This document shows positions 3,345 to 60,267 of a stretch of DNA of 64,000 nucleotides, one piece after another. Made by a program: the position numbers and the translations under genes. The notes beneath the pieces were generated by a model. That model was not told where the DNA came from. It searched no databases and worked only from the letters and a program-made list of their open reading frames with translations. Source of the stretch: a virus (lineage: Duplodnaviria > Caudoviricetes); IMG/VR virus record IMGVR_UViG_3300021256_000087, positions 19,477 to 83,476 of that record, one strand, 5' to 3'. The first letter of the stretch is position 1; the number at the start of each line of letters is the position of its first letter.

Positions 3345-5504
3345 TTAATCACCTCCTATCGCTTGTAAGAAATCATCATGAGTACTATTAAGATGTAGCC
3401 GATATCCATAAGGTTCTGCTTTAGTATATATGTGTGAAAATTTCCATCCTTGCTCTTCAACGCTGATAGCATTTGTATAAATATCTATGATACATCCCTC
3501 ATTCGCACCTCCATAAAACATGGTATTATCATATCCAATGGGATTGTATAATGTATTAGGAATATAAGCTATTTTATTGACGCTAGTGCTTGAATATTCG
3601 CTTATTAACATACAGTTTGTTATATCGTCTCTCGATCTAGGTATAACCCATCCGTCGAAGTCAACTGATCCCGCGAATCCAGATATTCCATATATATAAG
3701 TCACATTGGATAAATCCCAATTTCTTATATCAAGATTCCCGTTTAAAGAACTAGCGATGCCATTTATTCTAGTAAGATTATCAGTATCCAAATTACTAAG
3801 GTTAAAATTTCCTGTGCAATTTTGCAATAAATACGAAATACTTTGGAGTTGACCAACGTTCCAATTACTTAAATCATAAGACCCATATGTGCTATAAAAT
3901 AAATATTCCATTTCTTGAACATCTGATACATCGATTTTGTCTAAGTTATATAAGACCGGAGAATGGCCACTGTATCCATAACAAAAATAACTCATTTTGT
4001 TCGAAAATTTTATTCCCGTATTGGGGAAATATATCGCTCCAAGAGAACATCCGTATCCCATGAATCCATAAGAATATGTACAGACACCATCAACAACCAA
4101 TCCTCTCATATCTAAATACGTATCGTTCCAATCGGATCCATAATATGTACAATATATAAAATTGTTTAATCTGCCAGAATTTCCCATATGCAACACTGAA
4201 TTCTCAAACGTTATCTGAACAGGATAAGAACCAGATATAAAATTAGAAAAATCGCTAGCGTAAATCGTACTGTTTTTAATTAGATATGATGTCGTGCCAA
4301 GATCAGAAGCTTGAGGGGATATAAAATATCCTAAGCGATTTACTGCTGTGGGAAATGTTAACTCCAAAATATGATTAATTGCTTTATCATAATATGTCAA
4401 TCCAAATTGGCTGTAACTCGTAATATTTGGAGATAAAGAAGTTTTTAAATGCATTTCAGGAGTTTGGCATCCATAAAAGGGGTAATGACTATATGAAGTT
4501 TCTCCTGAGAAATCTAATGTAGAAAAATCAGTTTCTCCTAAAACAGTATTATAAAACATGTTATCTCCGTTCGAGATAATAACATCTTCAAAACAAGACA
4601 AATCCAATCCACTATCCGGCATTTTTATATATGCAAACATATAAGAAGTATCTAAGCCCGATGATTCCATTTTCATATTATCAAAGACAAAATTAGGTTC
4701 AATATCGTTATTCATCCATTGATAAAACATATACGATGCATTTACAATAGATGGAAATACGCAATCGGATAAATCAATTGTTACTTGCACCGATTCATTT
4801 GAAAGGGGGCCCGCCGAATTATTGAACATACCATACGCATTTTGCAGCAATGTAAAAGATACTCCTGATAAATCTATGGTAGGAATACTGCTTGAATAAA
4901 ACATTTGTGCCGCATTTACAACATTCGAAAAATCTAATGTATTTAATCCTGTGACAATAGGAATGCGAGCAGAATTAAACATATTACTTACATCTGTGAT
5001 AGTTGAAATATCAAACCCAGTTAAATCTAACGATGGGAGAGAAGCATTGTAAAACATGCCCGCAAGGCTTGTTAAATTTGACACGTCCAATGTAGCCAAT
5101 CTAAGACCTTGGACTATATTCGCCCCATTAAACATATTTGCCGGAAGACTATAGAATTGGGCTCCTGTAAAATCAACCGAGTTAAATGTTCCGCTCAATA
5201 AATTTATCGCTGTAGTTTGAGCACCAATAACTAATCCATCAAGAGACAAATCTCCTCCGGTAACATTTTGGAACATATAATTCATATTAGTTACAGATTC
5301 ACTATTTATTTCACTTAGATCAAAATCATAGGCCTTAGAATAACTAAATAAATAACTCCAGTCTTCGGCGTTATCCATCGTGGAGAAATCTGTATTTTTT
5401 ATAAATTCTTCTTCCCACCTATCACCTCTTTCTCCTATTTCAAGGCCATATTGTGGAATAAGACTTTTTCTTTCAATAGGAGGGCGTATATAAATAACTC
5501 CCAT
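3345..5504 (-). CDS. BspA/DUF285-type repeat protein (719 aa), putative virion adhesin or receptor-binding protein
   Basis: Repeats such as LDVSNLTSLAGMFYNA, FDISTITDVSNMFNSA, IDVSDVQEMEYLFY, WDLSNVT; lies at the distal end of the tail module. Confidence 0.75.
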   Translation of the reverse strand: MGVIYIRPPIERKSLIPQYGLEIGERGDRWEEEFIKNTDFSTMDNAEDWSYLFSYSKAYDFDLSEINSESVTNMNYMFQNVTGGDLSLDGLVIGAQTTAINLLSGTFNSVDFTGAQFYSLPANMFNGANIVQGLRLATLDVSNLTSLAGMFYNASLPSLDLTGFDISTITDVSNMFNSARIPIVTGLNTLDFSNVVNAAQMFYSSSIPTIDLSGVSFTLLQNAYGMFNNSAGPLSNESVQVTIDLSDCVFPSIVNASYMFYQWMNNDIEPNFVFDNMKMESSGLDTSYMFAYIKMPDSGLDLSCFEDVIISNGDNMFYNTVLGETDFSTLDFSGETSYSHYPFYGCQTPEMHLKTSLSPNITSYSQFGLTYYDKAINHILELTFPTAVNRLGYFISPQASDLGTTSYLIKNSTIYASDFSNFISGSYPVQITFENSVLHMGNSGRLNNFIYCTYYGSDWNDTYLDMRGLVVDGVCTYSYGFMGYGCSLGAIYFPNTGIKFSNKMSYFCYGYSGHSPVLYNLDKIDVSDVQEMEYLFYSTYGSYDLSNWNVGQLQSISYLLQNCTGNFNLSNLDTDNLTRINGIASSLNGNLDIRNWDLSNVTYIYGISGFAGSVDFDGWVIPRSRDDITNCMLISEYSSTSVNKIAYIPNTLYNPIGYDNTMFYGGANEGCIIDIYTNAISVEEQGWKFSHIYTKAEPYGYRLHLNSTHDDFLQAIGGD

Positions 5505-11411: not shown

Positions 11412-14400
11412 TTAGATAGAGTATTTACTCAATTTGCTTTTTCCTAAAGCAGTACCTATAGTTATATTCTGAACCAGCTTTTCGAATTGAGGATCCTTCT
11501 TTGCCTTATTAACAAAGTCTTCGTAACTTGTTACATTGGGCAGTGAGAAGGATACATTCATTCCATTAATTGTGGTTCCAGAAGTAATATTACTTAACGT
11601 ATTAGCTGGCAGTGTCGCCAGAGGTTGCATCATCTTAAAGATACTTTGCATCTGCTTTATACGCTCAAGGCTAAGTACTTCTTCACCGGTACGGGCGAGA
11701 ATAATACCATCCTCTCCAGTACGCTTAATAGCAGATCCAATTGTACCGCCCTTAGCATAAGCTGCATTTTTTAAAGTATTAGCTTCTTTTATAGCTGCCA
11801 CTGCTTGAGCATGGTAAAATTGTACGTTCGCCAAATAACCTTGCCATTTATCATATACAGCTTGTTTATTTGCTCCGCTCAAAGCAGGAGGTAATGACTT
11901 ATATTTTTTCTCTTCTGATTTTGCCAATTGTCTGTATTGTTTTTCTAATTCAATATATTTCTGATACTGCTCTTCGAGTTCTTGTATTTTTCTAATATTA
12001 ACAGATTTTTTAGATTTTTCTTCTCCTTCGGAAGGGTCTTCTCCTTGTATTCCATCAGTCGTGACCTGAGGAGAATTATTTGTTCCGTTATTGGATCCAT
12101 TATTATTCCCATTATTTTGTCCGAGCTGAGCAATCTGATTTGCAATCTGTGCTGCTTGATTTGCAGAAGAAGTAGCCACTGCATTTGCAAGCGCACTAAG
12201 AGCATTCAGTTGATTCTGAGCGTTGACATTAGCATCGGTGTGCATACCTTCAATCACAGCCTTCACCGCATCAACAGCTCCAACAGCATCGCTAATCTTC
12301 ATATCGAAATTAATTCCGAAAGAAGTGTTCTCAAGATCGTACGGAAATTCATCGAGCTCCTGTTGAATACTTTGTTTTATTGTCTCACCACTTGCAGCGG
12401 TCTGGTCAATAGCTTGTGCCACCAGTTTATCGAGATTATCAAGACGATCATCTATGAGTTTCTCAAACGCCTCATACATGTTATCCATCATTTCTTCTTG
12501 ATCAGAAAGCCACTTATCATACTCTGTTTGCTGTAAGTCTTCTTCTGCCTTCTTAAGGTCGTCGGCAAGCTGTTGTAAACGAGCACGATTCTCTTCGGAA
12601 TTATCTCCTCCAAGCGCCGCTAACTGTTGCTGATAATTTGTTATAGCTTCAGTTTGCTCTCTGACATTTCTCTCATAATCATAAAGATTCTTTTCAGCCT
12701 CTAAAGCTTTCTTACGGTAGTCTATAGACTTCTGTAAATAATCAAGGAATGTCTCGTACCCTTGTTTAATTAAATCTCTGATGGCTTGCTTTTCAGAAGA
12801 GATACCTTTGATAATATCTCTCCACTGATCTATAAGTTCGTTGCGCCTGTCAAGCAACTTCTTATTGTTAGGATCTTTCACAAGATCAGCATTAATCTTT
12901 TCTATCTCTTCGGCATAATCCTTGGCTTGCTCGGTAAGGGTCTGATAACTATTAACGTGCAAACCTTGGACAGAAAGAGCGGCGTCACTCATATTGCCGT
13001 TTGCATATAAGTTCTCGCCGATAAGAGCGTTCTTCTCGAACATCATAGCCTCATCCTGAAGGATGTCGATAAGGAACTCATTCTCTTCAGTAAGGCGACT
13101 AACCGAATCTTGAATGTAATCAAACTTATCCCATTCAAGTTGTCTAATCTGATCATTATAACCAGCGATATTAGATTGAAGTTCTAAGACTTGATCGTTG
13201 ACATTTTGAAGACTATCATACATTCCCCACCACTGTTCGGAACCATACTCAATGTCACCATTGGATACGGCCTCATCAATAGATGCGGCGAGTTGTTGTG
13301 CTTCATCTTGAAGTTGACCAAGCTTATCTTCAGCACCCGCTCTAAGCTGTTCGATTAAAAGCGTAGATTCAAAATATCCTTCTGATTCTATTGTACTCTG
13401 TATATGACCAATACGTGTTGCAGCATGGTCAATGCTGAGCGCCATCTCTTCGAACTGCTTAGTAATGTAATCAAATCTAGTTTGTGCGAGCTGAGCAATC
13501 TCCCCACGCAAATCTTCAACAGCATCTGCGGCATCAGTGGATTTATCATAATATTCTTGGAAGTCACTAATTTGCTCTTTGAGTTTTTCGTCAGTAACAG
13601 TTTCAATATCCATAAGGCCATTCATAACTTTACTACGATACTCAGCACTTAATCCAATTGCATTAGCCTCTGCCATATAGGCCTGTGCGGCTTGCTCTTG
13701 GAGAGCGATTTCTTCCTTGAGTTTCTGATATTTGCCTGATGTAAATTTATCGTAATCAGCATAAATAGCTTCTTGCTGAAGATGTAATCTTTCAGCATAA
13801 TCATCCGCTTCTTCAAGGGTGTCAAATATACCTAAGTATTCACCGGTGTTATGATATCTATCAAGTGCCTCATCACTGGTCATCTCATATGGATTACCAA
13901 GCTCGTCCCAGTCAATGGTTGGAACTAAAACAAATTTACCATCCTCTTCAAAGGATTCACTTAATACAGTTTCTACCCAAGATTCACCGTTTTCTTCTTG
14001 CCAAAGCTGAGGTCTATTATACAGATCAATATTGCCACGACCAAACTGACCAATCTCGTCATGGAACTCTTCGGTCTTACCCATAAGGGCGTCAATTCTA
14101 TCGCCCCACTTCTTATATGTTGCATCGGCAACCTTACCGAGATTAGTGACAGCACGCTGGATTTTCTTAATCGCGCGCTCAATCCAGTCGAACTTCTGCT
14201 TAGAGTCACCGGACTTGTCATTATCGACCATGGTATTGGCATCCCATTTTACATCAGGTTTCCAATCCACCTCGACACTACTAATTGCGTTTGCAACTTC
14301 ATCTCTAAGTTCATTGGCTTCCTTTAAATATTGAGAAGCAGTATATGAACCGGATCCTAAATTTTGAGCAACATGTTCAAGATAATCGGCTCTTGCAAGT

Positions 14401-17400: not shown

Positions 17401-20400
17401 GTCTTTTCAGGATCCTGAAGGATTTCATTACCGGCAGTAATAAGAGCGATAGATTCATTAAATGAAGTATTAGATGCCGCAAGTACCGAAGCGGAACGCT
17501 GCATTGCATCTCCAATATCAGTAGCGGAGAGAGCAAAGTGGTTACCTATTTCGTTATACTTATCTACGATTGACATTGCGTCATCAGCCGTAATATTGAA
17601 CGCTTTCATGGCGGTGATCATCATATCGGTAGCACCCTTGATATCAACACCGTCTCCAACATTTACAAATACACGTGCGTCCTTTGCTAACTCTGTAGCC
17701 TCTTTAATAGAGTATCCTAAGCGGCTCCAGTCTGCAGCCGACTGTATTAAATCAGCATTTGTTGAAGCAACATCGACAGCTGTTGAACGAATTGTATCTC
17801 TAAATTCTGAGTATTCTTTCTCAGTAGCATCAGTAACTTTACGAAGTTCGACCATTGCGGTGTCGAGCTCTTTTATGGTATTAACACCGGTACGAACATA
17901 ACGAATAATATCGTACAGTGAAAAATATCTAGCAATTTGAGCAGTAAACTGTGCCTTTAAACTCTTACCAATTCTAGTAAAAGCATCTACACCATATACG
18001 CCTAATTGCTTGTATTTTGAGCCAAGATCCATAACCTCGGCTTTTATATTATCATATCTTTCTCTATTAATACCTTCAACAACTTCATCGGCCTTTTTGC
18101 CTTCTACTCTTAATAATTGTAATTCATTTACTAAATTATAAATTCTACTTCTATCGTCTGCTGAAACACCTCGTCCTCGTGTGTTGTTTTGTAGTTCGAT
18201 AGCATCATTTAATAATTTAGAAACTTGGGAAGCTTTAACCGTAACATTTTGATCACTCTGTGCTTCTATGAATCTCTTTCTGTAATCTTCAAGACTTCTA
18301 TAAGCTTTTCTGATGATCGCCTCAGCACCTTCTCCGGCATTTTCTATATTTAATAATTGTCTTATTAATTCTTTAGCTTGAGCCGATTCTTCGTCAACCG
18401 TATTCTCAAATGCTTTTGTATATCCAAATCCTTGTTGCCTTTTTCGAACCATTGAGTTCGAAATATCTTTTTGGATCTTTCCGATTTGTCTGGCAAGATT
18501 AGCCCCGACCTCTTGATATTCGCTGTTAGATCCTAATATGCTTTCAACAAATTCACTACCAACATCTTTGCCACGAGCATATTCTCTAATAGCATTATAT
18601 GCCACATTTAATTTTGACGTAAGATTATCAATATATCCTTCATCAGCATCGGTATCAAATTTAGCTTCAGCAATAAGTTTACGAAGATTATACGTTCTTT
18701 GATATTGCGTATTTATCTCTTTAATGTTTTCAATAGTAGAAGAAAGTTCATCACCTTCTTGTACTAATTTAGCATAATCTTCGGCGCTTCTAATATCACC
18801 GGCTTTAAAATCCTGCAACCTTCCAATATGTTCATTCATTCGGACGTTTATAGAATTGATAGTCCCCAAAACGTCATCTCCGATACTATCGCGTATTGCA
18901 GCATTCATAAGAGACCGGAGTTCTTCGATGCGTCTATCAATCACGCCAGTGTCTACAATTTTGACACGGCTACTTGCATTAGTAGATTGCTTGACAAGAT
19001 CTTTAGCATTATCTATGTATTGCTGTCCATCTGCTAATGCCTCTTCTACTATAGAAGTATCAGATTCGCCAAATAATACATTTTCTAATCGCTCGACAAT
19101 ACGATCCCTCGCTTCGATAATATTGCGTGCGTTGCCCATAAACTCTTCGGAATATATTATGCCTTTATCAGTGTTGTTTTTGATATTATCAACAAGTTTA
19201 TCTCCATTTTCCTCTATATCTTTTAATATTTTTTCAGCAACAACACGATTGGCTTCTGCGGTAATTTTGTCCAGTTCTATATTTTTCTCTTCATCGGTCG
19301 TTAATCTTGAACCTTCAACATAGGTGCTGAACAGCTTATTAAAACTATCTTTCTGTTTTGAAATACCACGATTATCTCCGGAAAGTCTCTTAGTTTGAAT
19401 CTTTGCTTGTAATTCTACAAGGTTATTGTACGCTGTAAGTTTACCGGCATCTAAACTATTTTTGGCAACTAGCTTTGAATACCTATCATTAAACCTACGC
19501 CACTCTTTAAGATCCGCTCTGTTTGTTGGATTATCATAATTAATTAAATCTTGTTTTAATTTCTTTAAACCCTCGATATCTCGATTTTCTCCGGATCTTA
19601 TAATAATCCTATCAATTTTATTTAAGAACTCAACTACCTGATCGTGAGTGATAGCTTTCCGTTCCTCAGCCCCTTCACTATTTTTCGCATCAGCATTAAT
19701 ACTATCCGCCTGAACGTTCACGACATTTGTCTTTAATACTTCTGTATGATTAGTATCAACTATTGTGACATGAGGAGAACTAATTACTATTCCTTCCTCT
19801 GTGCCAACAATTTTAGGTTCAGTCTTAGGTTCATTGGTATCGGATTTCTTTATTGATTTTCTTTCTTTAGGAGGTTCTTTCGGAGGTTCCTGAGACGTTT
19901 TAGGCTTTTGCTCAGACTCGGCTTTATTCTTAAATTTATTATCAGTATATTCTTTACCAAAAGTCCTTCTTATTGCAAGTTTGAATTCATCAATGGCTCT
20001 CGCCGCCGTACTAACTTTAGGAACTATACTATTCCACAAATCCAATTCTTGGGCGTTACTTATCTTTAATGAATCGAATTGTTTCTCTGTCATTAAACCG
20101 GAATCAATAGCTTTTTTACGAGCAATAGGAAGCTGAGACTCCAGATATAAGGACTCTATTGCAGAGTCAAAATTCGTCTTTAATTTATCTAAATTTTTCT
20201 GAGCAGCGTTATAATCATCTTCTTCTGCTTTGAATGGATTATGTATCGATTTCATAACATCAGTAAAGATGGTGATTGCCTCACGTATATCAGTCAATAA
20301 AGATACTTCCTTGGCGTCTCCCTTAGGATCAGGTTCCCCTTCTTTTGCCTTCGCTATATTTTTAGCTAATGCGTTATAAGAGATCCATTCAGAAAGTTTT

Positions 20401-40542: not shown

Positions 40543-41597
40543 TTAAATTAAAGAGGTACCACCGTTACATCCACATCCGTTACCGCATGTGAATATAGGG
40601 GTTCTGCCATATACCGGAGTGCTGGGCACGGGGCAACTAGAAAGTCTATTATAGAGTTGATCAACCTCATCGCTGAATCCCTGCTGAATGAAAGCATTCT
40701 GTGCAGTCTGAGATTCGCGGAGAGCAGCCATATTGAGCTGACTTCTTAAGTTGTCGTTCTCCCTCTTGTAGCCATCCAGCTCGAGCTGGCAAAGTTTATC
40801 GAGGATAGACTGAGTATTTGCAGCATTAGCAGATCTGGTAGCACAAGCTTCAGTTGCGATGGTATACTTTACATCGGCAGTAGCTGCTCTATTATCGCAG
40901 CAACACTGAGCAAGCTGTGACTGGATCGCATTCAGCCCCTGAGTAGAAGCGGTCTGAGCTGCAAAACTTCTCTCCATATCAGCAATCTGATTGGAGAAGA
41001 GTTGAGTAGAGATGTCGCCAATACCATCTCTTACAGAGGTGATATTGTCATTTATCATAGCGTCTCTATAGGTACCATTTGTATTCGCATTAATTCCTGA
41101 CTGTCCATTAAGGATCCAAGGGAAGTCGTTGCCTCCACCGAATCCACCATTTCCCCATCCGTTACCCATGATAGCGAAGAGGAAGAGTATAACCCCAATA
41201 TGTTATCGCGCAGACTTTTTATTCCGCGCTTCTTGCGCTTTTATTCGCACAAGTTCAGCATATCTTTTCAACTATTTAATGCATATAATATAAATGTTTG
41301 GACGCGTTTTATTCTTTTCTGTTCGGCTTCAATCAACTATGTTTAAATAGTTGTCGCAGCCTCGTGGGCACATTGTATTCTGTTTCCAGTTTCAGTGCCT
41401 ATGCGTTGCGCATGACTGTACTTTTACATACAGCCTTCTGCTCGGATTTGCGTTTCAGCATTCCCGCTTAATTCTGCGATTTAAAGTTGGCAAGTTTTTG
41501 TTCACCAACCGTCTCCGCCAAATCCTGAATTTCCGTAGCCTCCGCCGTACGCGGGAGCAACAGGCATATACATGCCGTTTGAATCTGTAAGTGCCAT
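40543..41597 (-). CDS. Gly-rich, Cys-containing membrane-associated protein (~248 aa) split by a group I intron; exons 41597-41504 and 41195-40543
   Basis: AAAGGAG RBS and ATG at 41597; splicing restores MALTDSNGMYMPVAPAYGGGYGNSGFGGDGW-WVILFLFAIMGNGW... in frame with track ORF 40543-41169. Confidence 0.85.
41196..41503 (-). mobile_element. group I intron, ORF-less (308 nt)
   Basis: Exon ends in U, intron ends in G; P1 GUUGGU/GCCAAC with terminal U.G; P10 GGGUU/AACUU; P3 UCGCAG/CUGCGA; P/Q-like AAUUAAGCGGGAA and AAUCCGAGCAG; P7 GCAUA/UAUGC; 11-bp P8; P9 hairpins. Confidence 0.9.
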
Positions 41598-56909: not shown

Positions 56910-59900
56910 TCATTTTTGCAAATTTTTGCTAAAGCATTTAAGTAGTGCCTCAGGATTAACCTCGTATAAAACCCTTAATAAGATTGCTCTATTCTTATTT
57001 AGCTTACTTTTTAAACCGGCGGTCTGTTGCTCGAGCTGTGGAGTCATCCTAAAAGCTCTGTCCAGCAGCCAGCTAAACAAACCAATATATCTATTTGGTA
57101 ATGCTATTCGTCTAATGTCTTCCACAAGTTGTTCAAAATCTTCTCTGAGTAAGAGATAAGATTCCATATCGCTTATGCAATCATCTTTGTCTATTCTGCT
57201 TTCAAGTAATTCTAGTTGATATTTTTGTATAAGATCTTCAACATTACGTGAAGCCTTCTTTGTCATGTCCAGCGGAAACTTCTGAAAGAAATCCGTTGTC
57301 GGTATAGTTTCCGTTTCGGGTTTATATGATTCAAACTCCATCTTGTACAGCCTACACATAGGTGAATCGAGTTTGAAGTTTATTCTATTTGTTGGGAATC
57401 CTTTTCGGATTTGTTGCCAGAATGGCGGATATTTATTGTCCTTAATGCCGATATCGGCACGGATACGTTTTATTTCATTTGTTATATCTATTGAAAAGGT
57501 ACGCTTACTACTATCTATGGCTGCTTGTGCAAGCACCGCTAAGATACAAGCGTAATCTTTATATTTCTGATCTGGATAATTATATGTATATGTTAAACAA
57601 ACTTGTGCCAGATTGCTGGACTCTCCTATATTTCTTTGGCTCGCACTTAAATTGTTATCCATCAACGCAAATGAAGCCATGTCGGAATCGTATGATTTTT
57701 TACTCTTAGGTATATTATTAACTATCGTTGGATAGACTTGATAACAATACTTTGCGTGCTCCACAATTGAAGGAGCGTTGGTTGTGTATATTGAATCAGA
57801 GTCCTGATCTGCTATGTGTTATCGTATTGGTTCTTTATCCAATACCTCTCTAAGTTTCCTTAGACGCTCAGACTATCTCATCACCTTCGGCATTGTCCGG
57901 TCAGGTGTTCGGCGCTCGTGGGTGGATTATTGTTGCCTACTCACCACCTAGTCGTTAAACGTTCCTGTAGTTATTGTTGGCATTACAGACTTCGTAATTG
58001 ATTAGCATATATATGATTAAATATTTTTCCAAGTCTTTCTTTTAACAATATAATCAATAGTTGACCAATGACTATGATAATCATCATTTGGATAAAGTAT
58101 TCTGCAAATATCTATAACTCTCAACCCGTCAGAATACATTTTTCTTATTTCTAAAACTTGTTCTTCTGTAAGAGTACTACGTCCGTTATTAGTTCCAGTA
58201 TGTCCTTTACAAATGGTTTCATAATTATTATCAACACTATATTGAATATTTTCTTTATGAGTAACCCATTCAAGATTATCGGCATTGTTATTATGTCTAT
58301 TAAAATCTTTATGGTTTACTTCAGCTTCTTCAAAATAACCATCAACCCAAGCATGTGCTACATATAAATGAACTGGAACATCTCCGCCACTTACCAAATA
58401 GCCGTCTACATTATCTCTTGTTTTACTTTCTTGGTTTCTGTTATTTTTTATATCTCCATCTTTTGAAACCCACTTGCTACGATTTCTTACAGTCACATAT
58501 CTATATATCTTACCATCAATTTCTTTTTCTTCCATAAACGTCCTTTCCGAAATTGACTTGGAAATTAATCATATACTTAGCTTTCCGATTTTCACCGAAT
58601 GTTTATTACGCACATTTCTGTACGCTGGCCCAGTTTGTTAAGCCATTATTTCTGTCACAGAAACTTGTACCTTGTAGATTCACTGCTATACACAACTTAC
58701 CGAATCTAAAATACTTTTTAATCAACGGATGTAATCTGTTATGCAAATATCCCAAATTGTTTTGGGAATTAAAAGGATTTCTAAATTCTGCCAGATACTC
58801 TCCATCCTCAAATCTTTCTGAATAACATTGGATTGCATCTTCCTCTACGTCAAAGGTGCAATCTTTACTCACATCTTCTCCGACAGAGTGCAAGAGCATT
58901 GCGTATGGACTTCCACATATAACAAGATTATCGGCGTTTTGTAAAAGTTTACCGGTCTTTATACTCATCGTATAGTCGTAAATGATTTTCTTCTTACGCT
59001 CTCGGAAATATTCGCTCTGTTCAAATGTATGATCCTGAGTCCATATTGCCAGCAACGCTTCATAATCATTCGAAAAGTTTGCATTTCTCTTTAAGAAATC
59101 CAAATACGTATTTAAATCGGTCTTAAGTGCCTTTACATAATCTCTGGTGGGAGCGGATACCTGATCTATGGTTTCATTGTTTAATGAGTTGACCATTTGG
59201 TAAGACATCCTCTGATAATCGCCGTACTTGCTTGGATGCGCTGTCTTAACTATTCCAAACATTGATCCGTTCTCTCGAACCTTCTCACACCATTGTTCAT
59301 AGGTCACATTATATTTAACCCATTTCACGGCATTATTAGTGGTAATTACTTTAACGTTCTTAGCAAGATGTTTATTACCCCACATATCCGTCAGATAAGC
59401 CGTATCATATTTCTGACCAAAATAGTCCTTGAGAAAACCTTGTATATCTGTAGCGAATGCTGCCGCTTTTGTGAAATGATGGCGCAAGAGGAGATACCCG
59501 TTTGTCCACTCGGGACATATCGACAAATCGATTAATGCCTGTCCATCAAACATGTCACAGCCCAACGTGTAATCTCTACGATACACTGCCTTGCATTGAT
59601 TGTTTTCAACCTCTACACTTACCACATTGGTTTTGAATTCCGACTTTACATCTTTTAGGATTACTATATCTTCGGGATTAATCTCTATCTTGCCGACAAT
59701 GGTTGAAGTCACCAGTGATGTGTATGCCCCAAACTCCGTAATTGGTGCATCGTGCTTTGGGAGCTTGAGGCCCATATAGAGGAAGTCGTGAGCCTTCTTA
59801 TACAAGCTTTGCTTTATAAACATACACGAACCAACCTTAGCCTTGCCAGCGGTACGATACAAATATTTATACTTTACATCACCATTCTTATAATGTATCG

Positions 59901-60267
59901 TGACTCCGTTCTCATAAAATATCTTTCGTATTTCGTCTGCGCTTTTGCAATCAAACTTATCTTTATTGGCGACGCATTCTTCTCTAAGTGCTTGTAGATA
60001 TGTATTATCTGGATCCTCCGCCAATGAGACGTCTATCCTTGCAAGTTCGTCCTCATAAGTTCTGCTGCCGTAATTAAAGTTGAGACATATTACATCACGT
60101 GTATACTTTTCATTTCGGGTACTCAATCCATTCGCCTTAAGAAAGTCTAAGAATAGTGAGTTGGTTAACATTGCCTGTTTCGAATCGTACTTTTTACGAA
60201 CACCGCACTGTACTTCATATACAGAACCGGCCTCAAAATTACTAATCTTATAACCGTATTGACCCAA
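56910..60267 (-). CDS. yonO: YonO-like single-subunit (two-barrel, RdRP-related) DNA-dependent RNA polymerase, ~842 aa; exons 60267-58641 and 57811-56910
   Basis: DMFDGQALID, LLRHHFTKAA, AEFRNPFN; splicing restores DRNNG-S-DQDSDSIY (DxDxD catalytic motif); 1627+902=2529 nt = 843 codons. Confidence 0.88.
57812..58640 (-). mobile_element. group I intron (829 nt) carrying an HNH homing endonuclease
   Basis: P1 UGGCU/GGCCA with U.G at the 5' splice site; P10 CAG/CUG; P3 UUCGGUG/CGCCGAA; R UUUAACGACUAG; S GAGAUAGUCUG; terminal G. Confidence 0.92.
58017..58535 (-). CDS. intron-encoded HNH homing endonuclease
   Basis: VHLYVAHAWV...EVNHKDFNRHNNNADNLEWVTHKEN; C-terminal GTNNGRSTLTEEQVLEIR DNA-binding module; flanked by a 10-bp stem TATATGATTA/TAATCATATA. 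Confidence 0.92.
   Translation of the reverse strand: MEEKEIDGKIYRYVTVRNRSKWVSKDGDIKNNRNQESKTRDNVDGYLVSGGDVPVHLYVAHAWVDGYFEEAEVNHKDFNRHNNNADNLEWVTHKENIQYSVDNNYETICKGHTGTNNGRSTLTEEQVLEIRKMYSDGLRVIDICRILYPNDDYHSHWSTIDYIVKRKTWKNI

Follow-up and report, generated by a model that had tools for sequence, protein, structure and literature searches.

Introduction

Group I introns that encode HNH nucleases occupy the DNA polymerase genes of the Bacillus phages SPO1 (I-HmuI) and SP82 (I-HmuII). Here, we analyzed a 64,000-nucleotide (nt) stretch of a Caudoviricetes virus (positions 19,477 to 83,476 of the IMG/VR record IMGVR_UViG_3300021256_000087; hereafter, the window, i.e. the whole stretch), in which an RNA polymerase gene of the YonO family is, very probably, interrupted by a mobile group I intron with an HNH nuclease. 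As in SPO1 and SP82, the nuclease lies within a group I intron in an essential phage gene, but the host gene is different, and the nuclease has Asn in place of the Asp that precedes the catalytic His in I-HmuI. I-HmuI is a nicking enzyme that cuts intron-containing DNA as well. The introns in bnrdE and bnrdF of SPbeta and in td, nrdB and nrdD of T4 are also located in conserved regions of essential genes, some having a nuclease open reading frame (ORF) and others lacking one, and also vary in presence among relatives; their host genes are others and their nucleases mostly belong to other families.

A close precedent at an RNA polymerase gene is found in PhiPA3, where an I-HmuI-like HNH protein, gp210, is encoded in an intron bordering the conserved aspartates of the virion RNA polymerase subunit gene gp211/gp209 (Birkholz et al. 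2024, PMC11620839). This protein nicks PhiKZ gp178 next to the conserved aspartates, and PhiKZ progeny are reduced 3.7-fold in co-infection (PMC11620839). Both elements combine a group I intron and an I-HmuI-like HNH ORF at the aspartates of a two-barrel phage RNA polymerase, and both have intron-less relatives. However, the PhiPA3 gene encodes a subunit of a multi-subunit polymerase in a nucleus-forming Pseudomonas jumbo phage, whereas that in the window encodes a single-chain, YonO-type enzyme in a gut/rumen Firmicutes phage of about 125 kb; moreover, nicking and competition were demonstrated experimentally for PhiPA3, whereas the system described here is known from sequence alone. The prototype of the enzyme family, YonO of SPbeta, performs DNA-dependent RNA synthesis and transcribes the late operon (Forrest et al. 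2017, PMC5467207). The polymerase in the window belongs to the same PHROG (phrog_8308), is nearly the same length (842 vs. 839 amino acids (aa)) and is likewise encoded upstream of structural genes; it differs in sequence (about 21% identity) and in the Asp triad (DxDSD vs. DNDGD in SPbeta), and yonO of SPbeta has no intron.

Results

Interruption of the polymerase gene

The insertion (58640..57812, minus strand) falls within the polymerase gene at the Ser codon of NNG-S-DQDSD, separating the first base of this codon from the other two (Table 1). It starts after a U and ends in a terminal G at 57812. The 3′ end of exon 1 encodes ...CDRNNG, followed by the single T at 58641, and exon 2 begins with CA followed by GAT CAG GAC TCT GAT, that is, S-DQDSD after joining. 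Removal of the insertion restores the reading frame exactly, and the predicted ligated junction, ...AATGGCT|CAGATCAG..., is the sequence found in the intron-less alleles of two relatives, L009 and L011 (GGC T|CA GAT CAG). In the unspliced RNA, the frame of exon 1 continues for 11 codons into the insertion and ends at the stop codon 58608-58606; the frame of exon 2 is closed upstream by TAA at 57821-57819, and its first start codon, GTG at 57764, is past the Asp triad. Thus, polymerase activity appears to depend on splicing, the spliced mRNA being the only predicted message that can yield a polymerase with the triad. The first-pass annotation of this stretch had placed the junction at T|CA in the Ser codon and termination of the unspliced message 11 codons into the intron, both of which are borne out, as are the other features that it listed, at the coordinates given; its location of the intron inside the DxDxD motif holds with respect to proximity to the catalytic aspartates but not literally, the junction being one codon upstream of the first Asp.

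Other explanations for the interruption were considered and rejected. An intein is incompatible with the stop codons in the exon frame within the insertion and with the presence of a separate ORF that has its own ribosome-binding site; a split polymerase made of two polypeptides, with the lack of a start codon in the frame of exon 2 before the triad; and an assembly artefact, with the recurrence of the arrangement on many independent contigs.

Table 1 Coordinates of the interrupted gene, the intron and its predicted helices in the window, and insertion sites in related polymerase genes (L numbers denote related sequences; ^, insertion point).
Feature	Position or sequence	Strand	Remarks
Exon 1, YonO-family RNA polymerase gene	58641..60267	-	TTG start at 60267; 542 codons plus T at 58641, the first base of the Ser codon
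Exon 2, YonO-family RNA polymerase gene	56910..57811	-	CA completes the Ser codon; then 298 codons and stop
Asp triad codons (exon 2)	57809-57807, 57803-57801, 57797-57795	-	
Group I intron	57812..58640	-	829 nt; Rfam Intron_gpI (RF00028) on the 3′ core, covariation, intron-less alleles
P1	58626..58645	-	exon end UGGCU 58645..58641 with guide GGCCA 58630..58626; U.G wobble at the splice site
P10 (possible)	P1 loop CUG, 3′ exon CAG	-	could pair; read from sequence
P2 hairpin	58608..58625	-	7 bp, GAAA loop; compensatory changes
P3, 5′ strand	58593..58599	-	UUCGGUG; partner 57914..57908; U-A replaced by C-G in L008
P5 extension, 5′ arm	58566..58575	-	10 bp; partner 58019..58010; loops out the HNH ORF
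HNH endonuclease ORF, I-HmuI-like	58017..58535	-	172 aa; own AGGA ribosome-binding site; in the P5 loop
P6/P6a	57959..57995	-	covariation alignment
P7	57871..57953	-	GACUA 57953..57949 with UAGUC 57875..57871; encloses P7.1, P3 3′ strand and P8
P7.1	57948..57920	-	compensatory changes
P3, 3′ strand	57914..57908	-	inside P7
P8	57907..57882	-	compensatory changes
P9	57864..57849	-	GAAA loop; two-sided changes in 5 of 6 pairs
P9.2	57845..57824	-	two-sided changes in 6 of 7 pairs
Site A, NG^S	window, L008, L015, L001, L017, L022		DNA-confirmed
Site B, DQD^SD	L007 (5140-5380), L023		DNA-confirmed; 12 nt downstream of site A, inside the motif
Site C, VLA^QxAID	L001 (5285-5560), L017 (3543-3798), L024 (about 4542-4802)		DNA-confirmed

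Identification of the ribozyme

The insertion is identified as a group I intron with covariation-supported helices. In an alignment of the 3′ halves of 8 introns, 85.8% of the cells in the predicted helices are paired, compared to 69% in shuffles, and two-sided changes occur in 25 of 39 pairs; none of 500 shuffles reached the observed values, and slid controls gave 30-48%. A second alignment showed compensatory changes in 26 of 43 pairs. P7 is invariant in all 8 aligned introns. The guide sequence covaries with the end of the exon (exon/guide combinations UGGCU/GGCCA, GGGU/GCCC, GGGU/GCUC and GACU/GGUC), the two changing together in 10 other introns. The P7.1 hairpin between P7 and P3 is a feature resembling the IA class.

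An allele of the same intron in which the ORF is deleted (L008, 342 nt) passes the Rfam group I threshold (58.5 vs. 50 bits), and four other ORF-less relatives score 69.5-93 bits. We also built a covariance model (R1) from the cores of the polymerase-gene introns, which detects two independent copies that were not used for training, in L022 and L024, at 166 and 125 bits, respectively. The exact agreement of intron-less alleles with the ligated junction, the significant covariance-model scores and the strong covariation together go beyond what chance would produce. The 10-bp stem, 58575..58566 with 58019..58010, is perfectly paired and encloses the ORF; one relative (L017) retains this stem with a different sequence, and the Rfam alignment of the ORF-deleted allele puts the remnant of the ORF in the P5 loop, which identifies the stem as an extension of P5. 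The TAA stop codon of the ORF coincides with the start of the 3′ arm of this extension. A group II intron was rejected given that no reverse transcriptase is present and the group I core is. A further R1 match in the window, at 12635-12750, is inside a 5016-codon tape-measure ORF, lacks the P7-P8 core and is attributed to chance.

The HNH ORF

The product of the ORF matches Pfam HNH_3 (PF13392) at 29.9 bits (cut-off 24.8, E = 4.4e-7) and phrog_59 (E = 1.7e-19). The nearest solved structure is I-HmuI of Bacillus phage SPO1 (PDB 1U3E, E = 8.2e-7), with 174 compared to 172 aa and with residues H75, N87 and N96 of the predicted protein aligned to it. Homologues with 53-56% identity are encoded in the introns of L001, L017 and L022, which suggests that the ORF is maintained. 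In L008 and L015, the introns have lost the nuclease ORF, as in the usual cycle of homing elements. Together with the covariation and the Rfam score of L008, the HNH_3 match corroborates the first-pass annotation, which had proposed a group I intron with a homing-type HNH nuclease looped out by a 10-bp stem.

Just upstream of the HNH start codon (58544-58564, minus strand), the sequences UUUCC and GGAAA could form a small hairpin overlapping the ribosome-binding site, and the hairpin sequence is kept in L008. Such a structure may hold back translation of the nuclease in the folded intron.

The polymerase

The host gene is predicted to encode a single-subunit, two-barrel RNA polymerase of the YonO family. 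The protein encoded by exon 1 matches phrog_8308 (E = 3.6e-73), the same PHROG to which YonO of SPbeta (from NC_001884) belongs (E = 0), and an intron-less allele (P0004, 840 aa, 90% identical to the polymerase in the window) matches it with E = 3.8e-93. A profile of 49 diverse homologues aligned with SPbeta YonO by hhalign (probability 99.35%, E = 6.6e-21, 529 columns), with the Asp triad and the RxP motif of the beta-prime-like barrel in register; among these homologues, R496, P498, D546 and D548 are invariant, and D544 is present in at least 90%. Searches of the PDB by sequence with exon 1 alone and with the family profile found no relative, and therefore a fold search was required. The AlphaFold model of P0004 (predicted local distance difference test score 92.8) shows a polymerase fold with two double-psi beta-barrels in one chain; in Foldseek, the top solved structures were the two-barrel RNA-dependent polymerases RDR2 and QDE-1 (E from 5e-15 to 1e-11), followed by the Thermus phage single-chain polymerases and gp66 of crAss-like phi14:2. 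The profile and fold matches agree with the first-pass description of the gene as YonO-like. Exon 1 is preceded by a Shine-Dalgarno-like sequence, GGGGGTGA, 7 nt 5′ of the TTG start codon.

The family is large: one search returned 2,943 proteins at E ≤ 1e-5, and a second gave 1,236 clusters at 50% identity. The named relatives of the polymerase come from phages of Enterocloster, Thomasclavelia and Clostridium, and a megablast search of the locus against GenBank phages yielded no match.

Presence and absence of the intron among close relatives

We fetched 13 relatives from IMG/VR, 8 of which are 88-94% identical to the window in exon 1. Six of these eight (L005, L006, L009, L010, L011 and L013) lack the intron and read CDRNNG-S-DQDSD or DFDSD. 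In L008, the same intron occupies the same site with the ORF deleted, the ORF leader and the last ~30 nt remaining, and L007 has a related ORF-less intron at site B instead. Both exons in the window are 86-94% identical to the intron-less alleles and contain no frameshifts. An apparent gap in the exon 1 match of a distant homologue, L016 (4008-4319), is not an intron but an in-frame coding insertion that adds ~100 codons to the N-terminal portion of its polymerase.

Insertion sites among homologues

To assess the frequency of interruption, we examined the 120 closest protein matches to the polymerase. Of these, 84 are full length, with NG-x-DxD(S/G)D uninterrupted; a lack of such contiguity in intron-less homologues had been named in the first-pass annotation as grounds for refutation, and the intron passes this check. 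Another 21 stop at site A and carry a conserved read-through peptide translated from P1-P2; 4 or 5 break off within the triad, following DxD, and 9 end ~95 codons downstream, after ...VLA. The survey for insertions at the same site that the first-pass annotation had called for thus turned up 21 proteins that end there. Overall, related introns are present in about 30% of the metagenomic homologues nearest to the polymerase. The three sites that they occupy lie around invariant residues: A and B flank D544, D546 and D548, and site C is 5 codons before the invariant D642 and K645.

The introns at the three sites belong to one ribozyme family. L001 and L017 contain two introns each, at sites A and C, ~290 nt apart. 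Within one phage clade, the site-B intron of L007 is nearest to the site-A intron of L008 (80% in the core); its guide differs by one base from that of the window, and it is inserted after GACU|CA. The site-C intron of L024 shares the guide and P2 with the site-A intron of the window, both being inserted after UGGCU|CA. In this small sample, HNH ORFs were found only at site A, and the resolved copies at sites B and C are ORF-less (L023 ends at the contig edge).

In this small sample, the distribution is consistent with spread to look-alike sites directed by the guide or with hitch-hiking through co-conversion. We tentatively propose, as a possibility rather than the expected outcome, that one ribozyme lineage colonized three sites within ~100 codons, the choice of site being made by the guide and not by the nuclease, perhaps with a role in competition. 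If so, these introns would provide natural evidence of ectopic spread of a group I intron directed by the guide, much as in reverse splicing; copies that lack an ORF could hitch-hike by co-conversion beside an intron with HNH, and the nuclease could be active in competition between co-infecting phages. The three-site pattern with its shared guide offers useful natural material for studying the spread of group I introns to new sites.

Mode of action and alternative explanations

The mobile group I intron would work as follows. Both exons and the intron would be transcribed as one pre-mRNA, the ribozyme would pair the exon end UGGCU with the guide GGCCA, an external guanosine would cut after the U, and the exons would then be joined past the terminal G to give ...NNG-S-DQDSD.... 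By analogy with I-HmuI and PhiPA3 gp210, the nuclease encoded in the P5 loop would, close to the insertion site, nick or cut the intron-less allele of a co-infecting relative, and repair of the cut allele would copy the intron in, that is, homing.

Several observations weigh against this interpretation. The intron in the window scores 35.8 bits against Rfam Intron_gpI (E = 1.8e-5 for the whole window), on the 3′ core and under the cut-off of 50, apparently because the HNH ORF interrupts the Rfam model; at curated thresholds, no Rfam match was found over the whole window, the intron appearing with E-value thresholds only. Splicing itself we infer from the sequence. Position 74 of the HNH protein, before the catalytic His, is Asn and not Asp as in I-HmuI, a replacement that is kept in the HNH homologues of L001 and L017. 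In I-HmuI, this Asp is a metal ligand. Because of the Asn, the predicted nuclease activity is not assured.

If the nuclease served mainly as a weapon, in line with the phage-phage competition suggested in the first-pass annotation, it would damage the polymerase gene of intron-less relatives in co-infection and lower their yield to the benefit of its own phage, which is compatible with homing. The action of PhiPA3 gp210 on PhiKZ gp178 is a close precedent (PMC11620839), and an intron-containing and an intron-less phage (L008 and L011) were recovered from the same metagenome, 3300031992. The Ser codon at the site also varies among intron-less alleles, namely, AGC in L005, L010 and L014, and TCA in L006, L009, L011 and L013; the U|CA junction required by the ribozyme, and perhaps by the nuclease, is absent from the AGC alleles, which may therefore be refractory sites. 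Against a weapon function stand the ORF-deleted introns of L008 and L015, which indicate that the nuclease is readily lost, as in a selfish homing cycle, and the ~90% identity of the alleles, at which homing repair would likely succeed rather than kill. We consider a predominantly antagonistic function possible, by analogy, but rather doubtful.

Dependence of the polymerase on splicing might also be taken to imply a regulatory gate, the timing checkpoint of the first-pass annotation, in which the efficiency of splicing delays or conditions production of the active enzyme and, hence, late transcription. However, every intron in an essential gene brings such dependence with it, and this does not make a checkpoint. 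The intron is evidently dispensable given that six of the eight near-identical relatives (88-94% identity) manage without it, other phages carry it at different sites, and no condition-sensing element was seen in it; being dispensable and variable suits a parasite rather than a regulator, so that a timing function is very improbable. That the locus is a dead remnant, i.e. a polymerase pseudogene in a phage that relies on another polymerase, could be read from the sub-threshold Rfam score in the window and from the many contigs in which two separate proteins are called, but is hardly credible: both exons are intact and close to the intron-less alleles, the helix differences from L008 are compensatory, P7 and the joining regions do not vary, and the same arrangement is seen on many independent contigs. 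Taken as a mobile group I intron with an HNH nuclease, the element is typical of a known selfish kind that is common in the YonO family of gut/rumen phages. With it, the arrangement recently shown in jumbo phages, where an HNH intron adjoins the catalytic aspartates of a two-barrel RNA polymerase, extends to the single-chain YonO branch.

Probable introns in yonO of cultured phages

When searched with SPbeta YonO (tblastn), yonO was found in two pieces in phi3T, SPR, Goe11, Goe14, BUCT083 and SPbetaL3-L7. In GenBank, the pieces are entered either under the names yonO_1 and yonO_2 or as hypothetical proteins in their own right, and in BUCT083, a GIY-YIG ORF is annotated between them. The inserts are either 400 nt long without an ORF or ~1.3 kb with a 300-aa ORF (GIY-YIG in BUCT083). 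In the split gene, represented by Goe11 (L019), phi3T (L020) and BUCT083 (L021), exon 1 ends with ...FTID and exon 2 resumes with FAKTLF, restoring the SPbeta sequence exactly; the 5′ junction is preceded by U and the 3′ junction by G. This break (FTID|FAK) is ~90 codons downstream of the intron site in the window. The 400-nt insert of phi3T reaches only 19.7 bits with Rfam and 28.7 bits with model R1 (E = 3e-4). Because the R1 match ends at the predicted 3′ splice site and the borders are U and G, inserts of the phi3T type are probably group I introns that occupy a fourth site, which lies 5 codons from site C.

According to the first-pass annotation, introns of this kind were unreported in YonO-type enzymes. 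A literature search found no paper on introns in YonO genes, and to that extent the statement stands; it needs to be qualified in that GenBank records of cultured SPbeta-like phages show split yonO and that the PhiPA3 precedent is published. Gene callers report the polymerase as two or three "hypothetical proteins", a mis-annotation that affects about 30% of its nearest metagenomic homologues as well as several SPbeta-like Bacillus phages in culture. Phi3T, SPR and Goe11, which have a probable intron in yonO, can be grown on Bacillus subtilis, as can the intron-less SPbeta, so that these phages offer a tractable system for homing, co-conversion and competition at a YonO gene.

Additional observations

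A second, ORF-less group I intron can be recognized elsewhere in the phage of the window, at 41197-41503 (minus strand), where R1 matches 41197-41448 (61.1 bits, E = 4e-11); on visual inspection, pairing is possible between UUGGU at the end of the exon and GCCAA, and the 3′ tail is like that of the polymerase intron. Rfam gave no match at 41197-41503 even at E = 1.

In L022 (5494-5728), in L024 (5858-6151) and in the contig of the homologue P0012, the polymerase gene is followed, a few genes further downstream, by an HU-like gene (Pfam Bac_DNA_binding). In SPbeta, yonN, annotated as a DNA-binding protein, likewise follows yonO, so that the gene order appears to be conserved.

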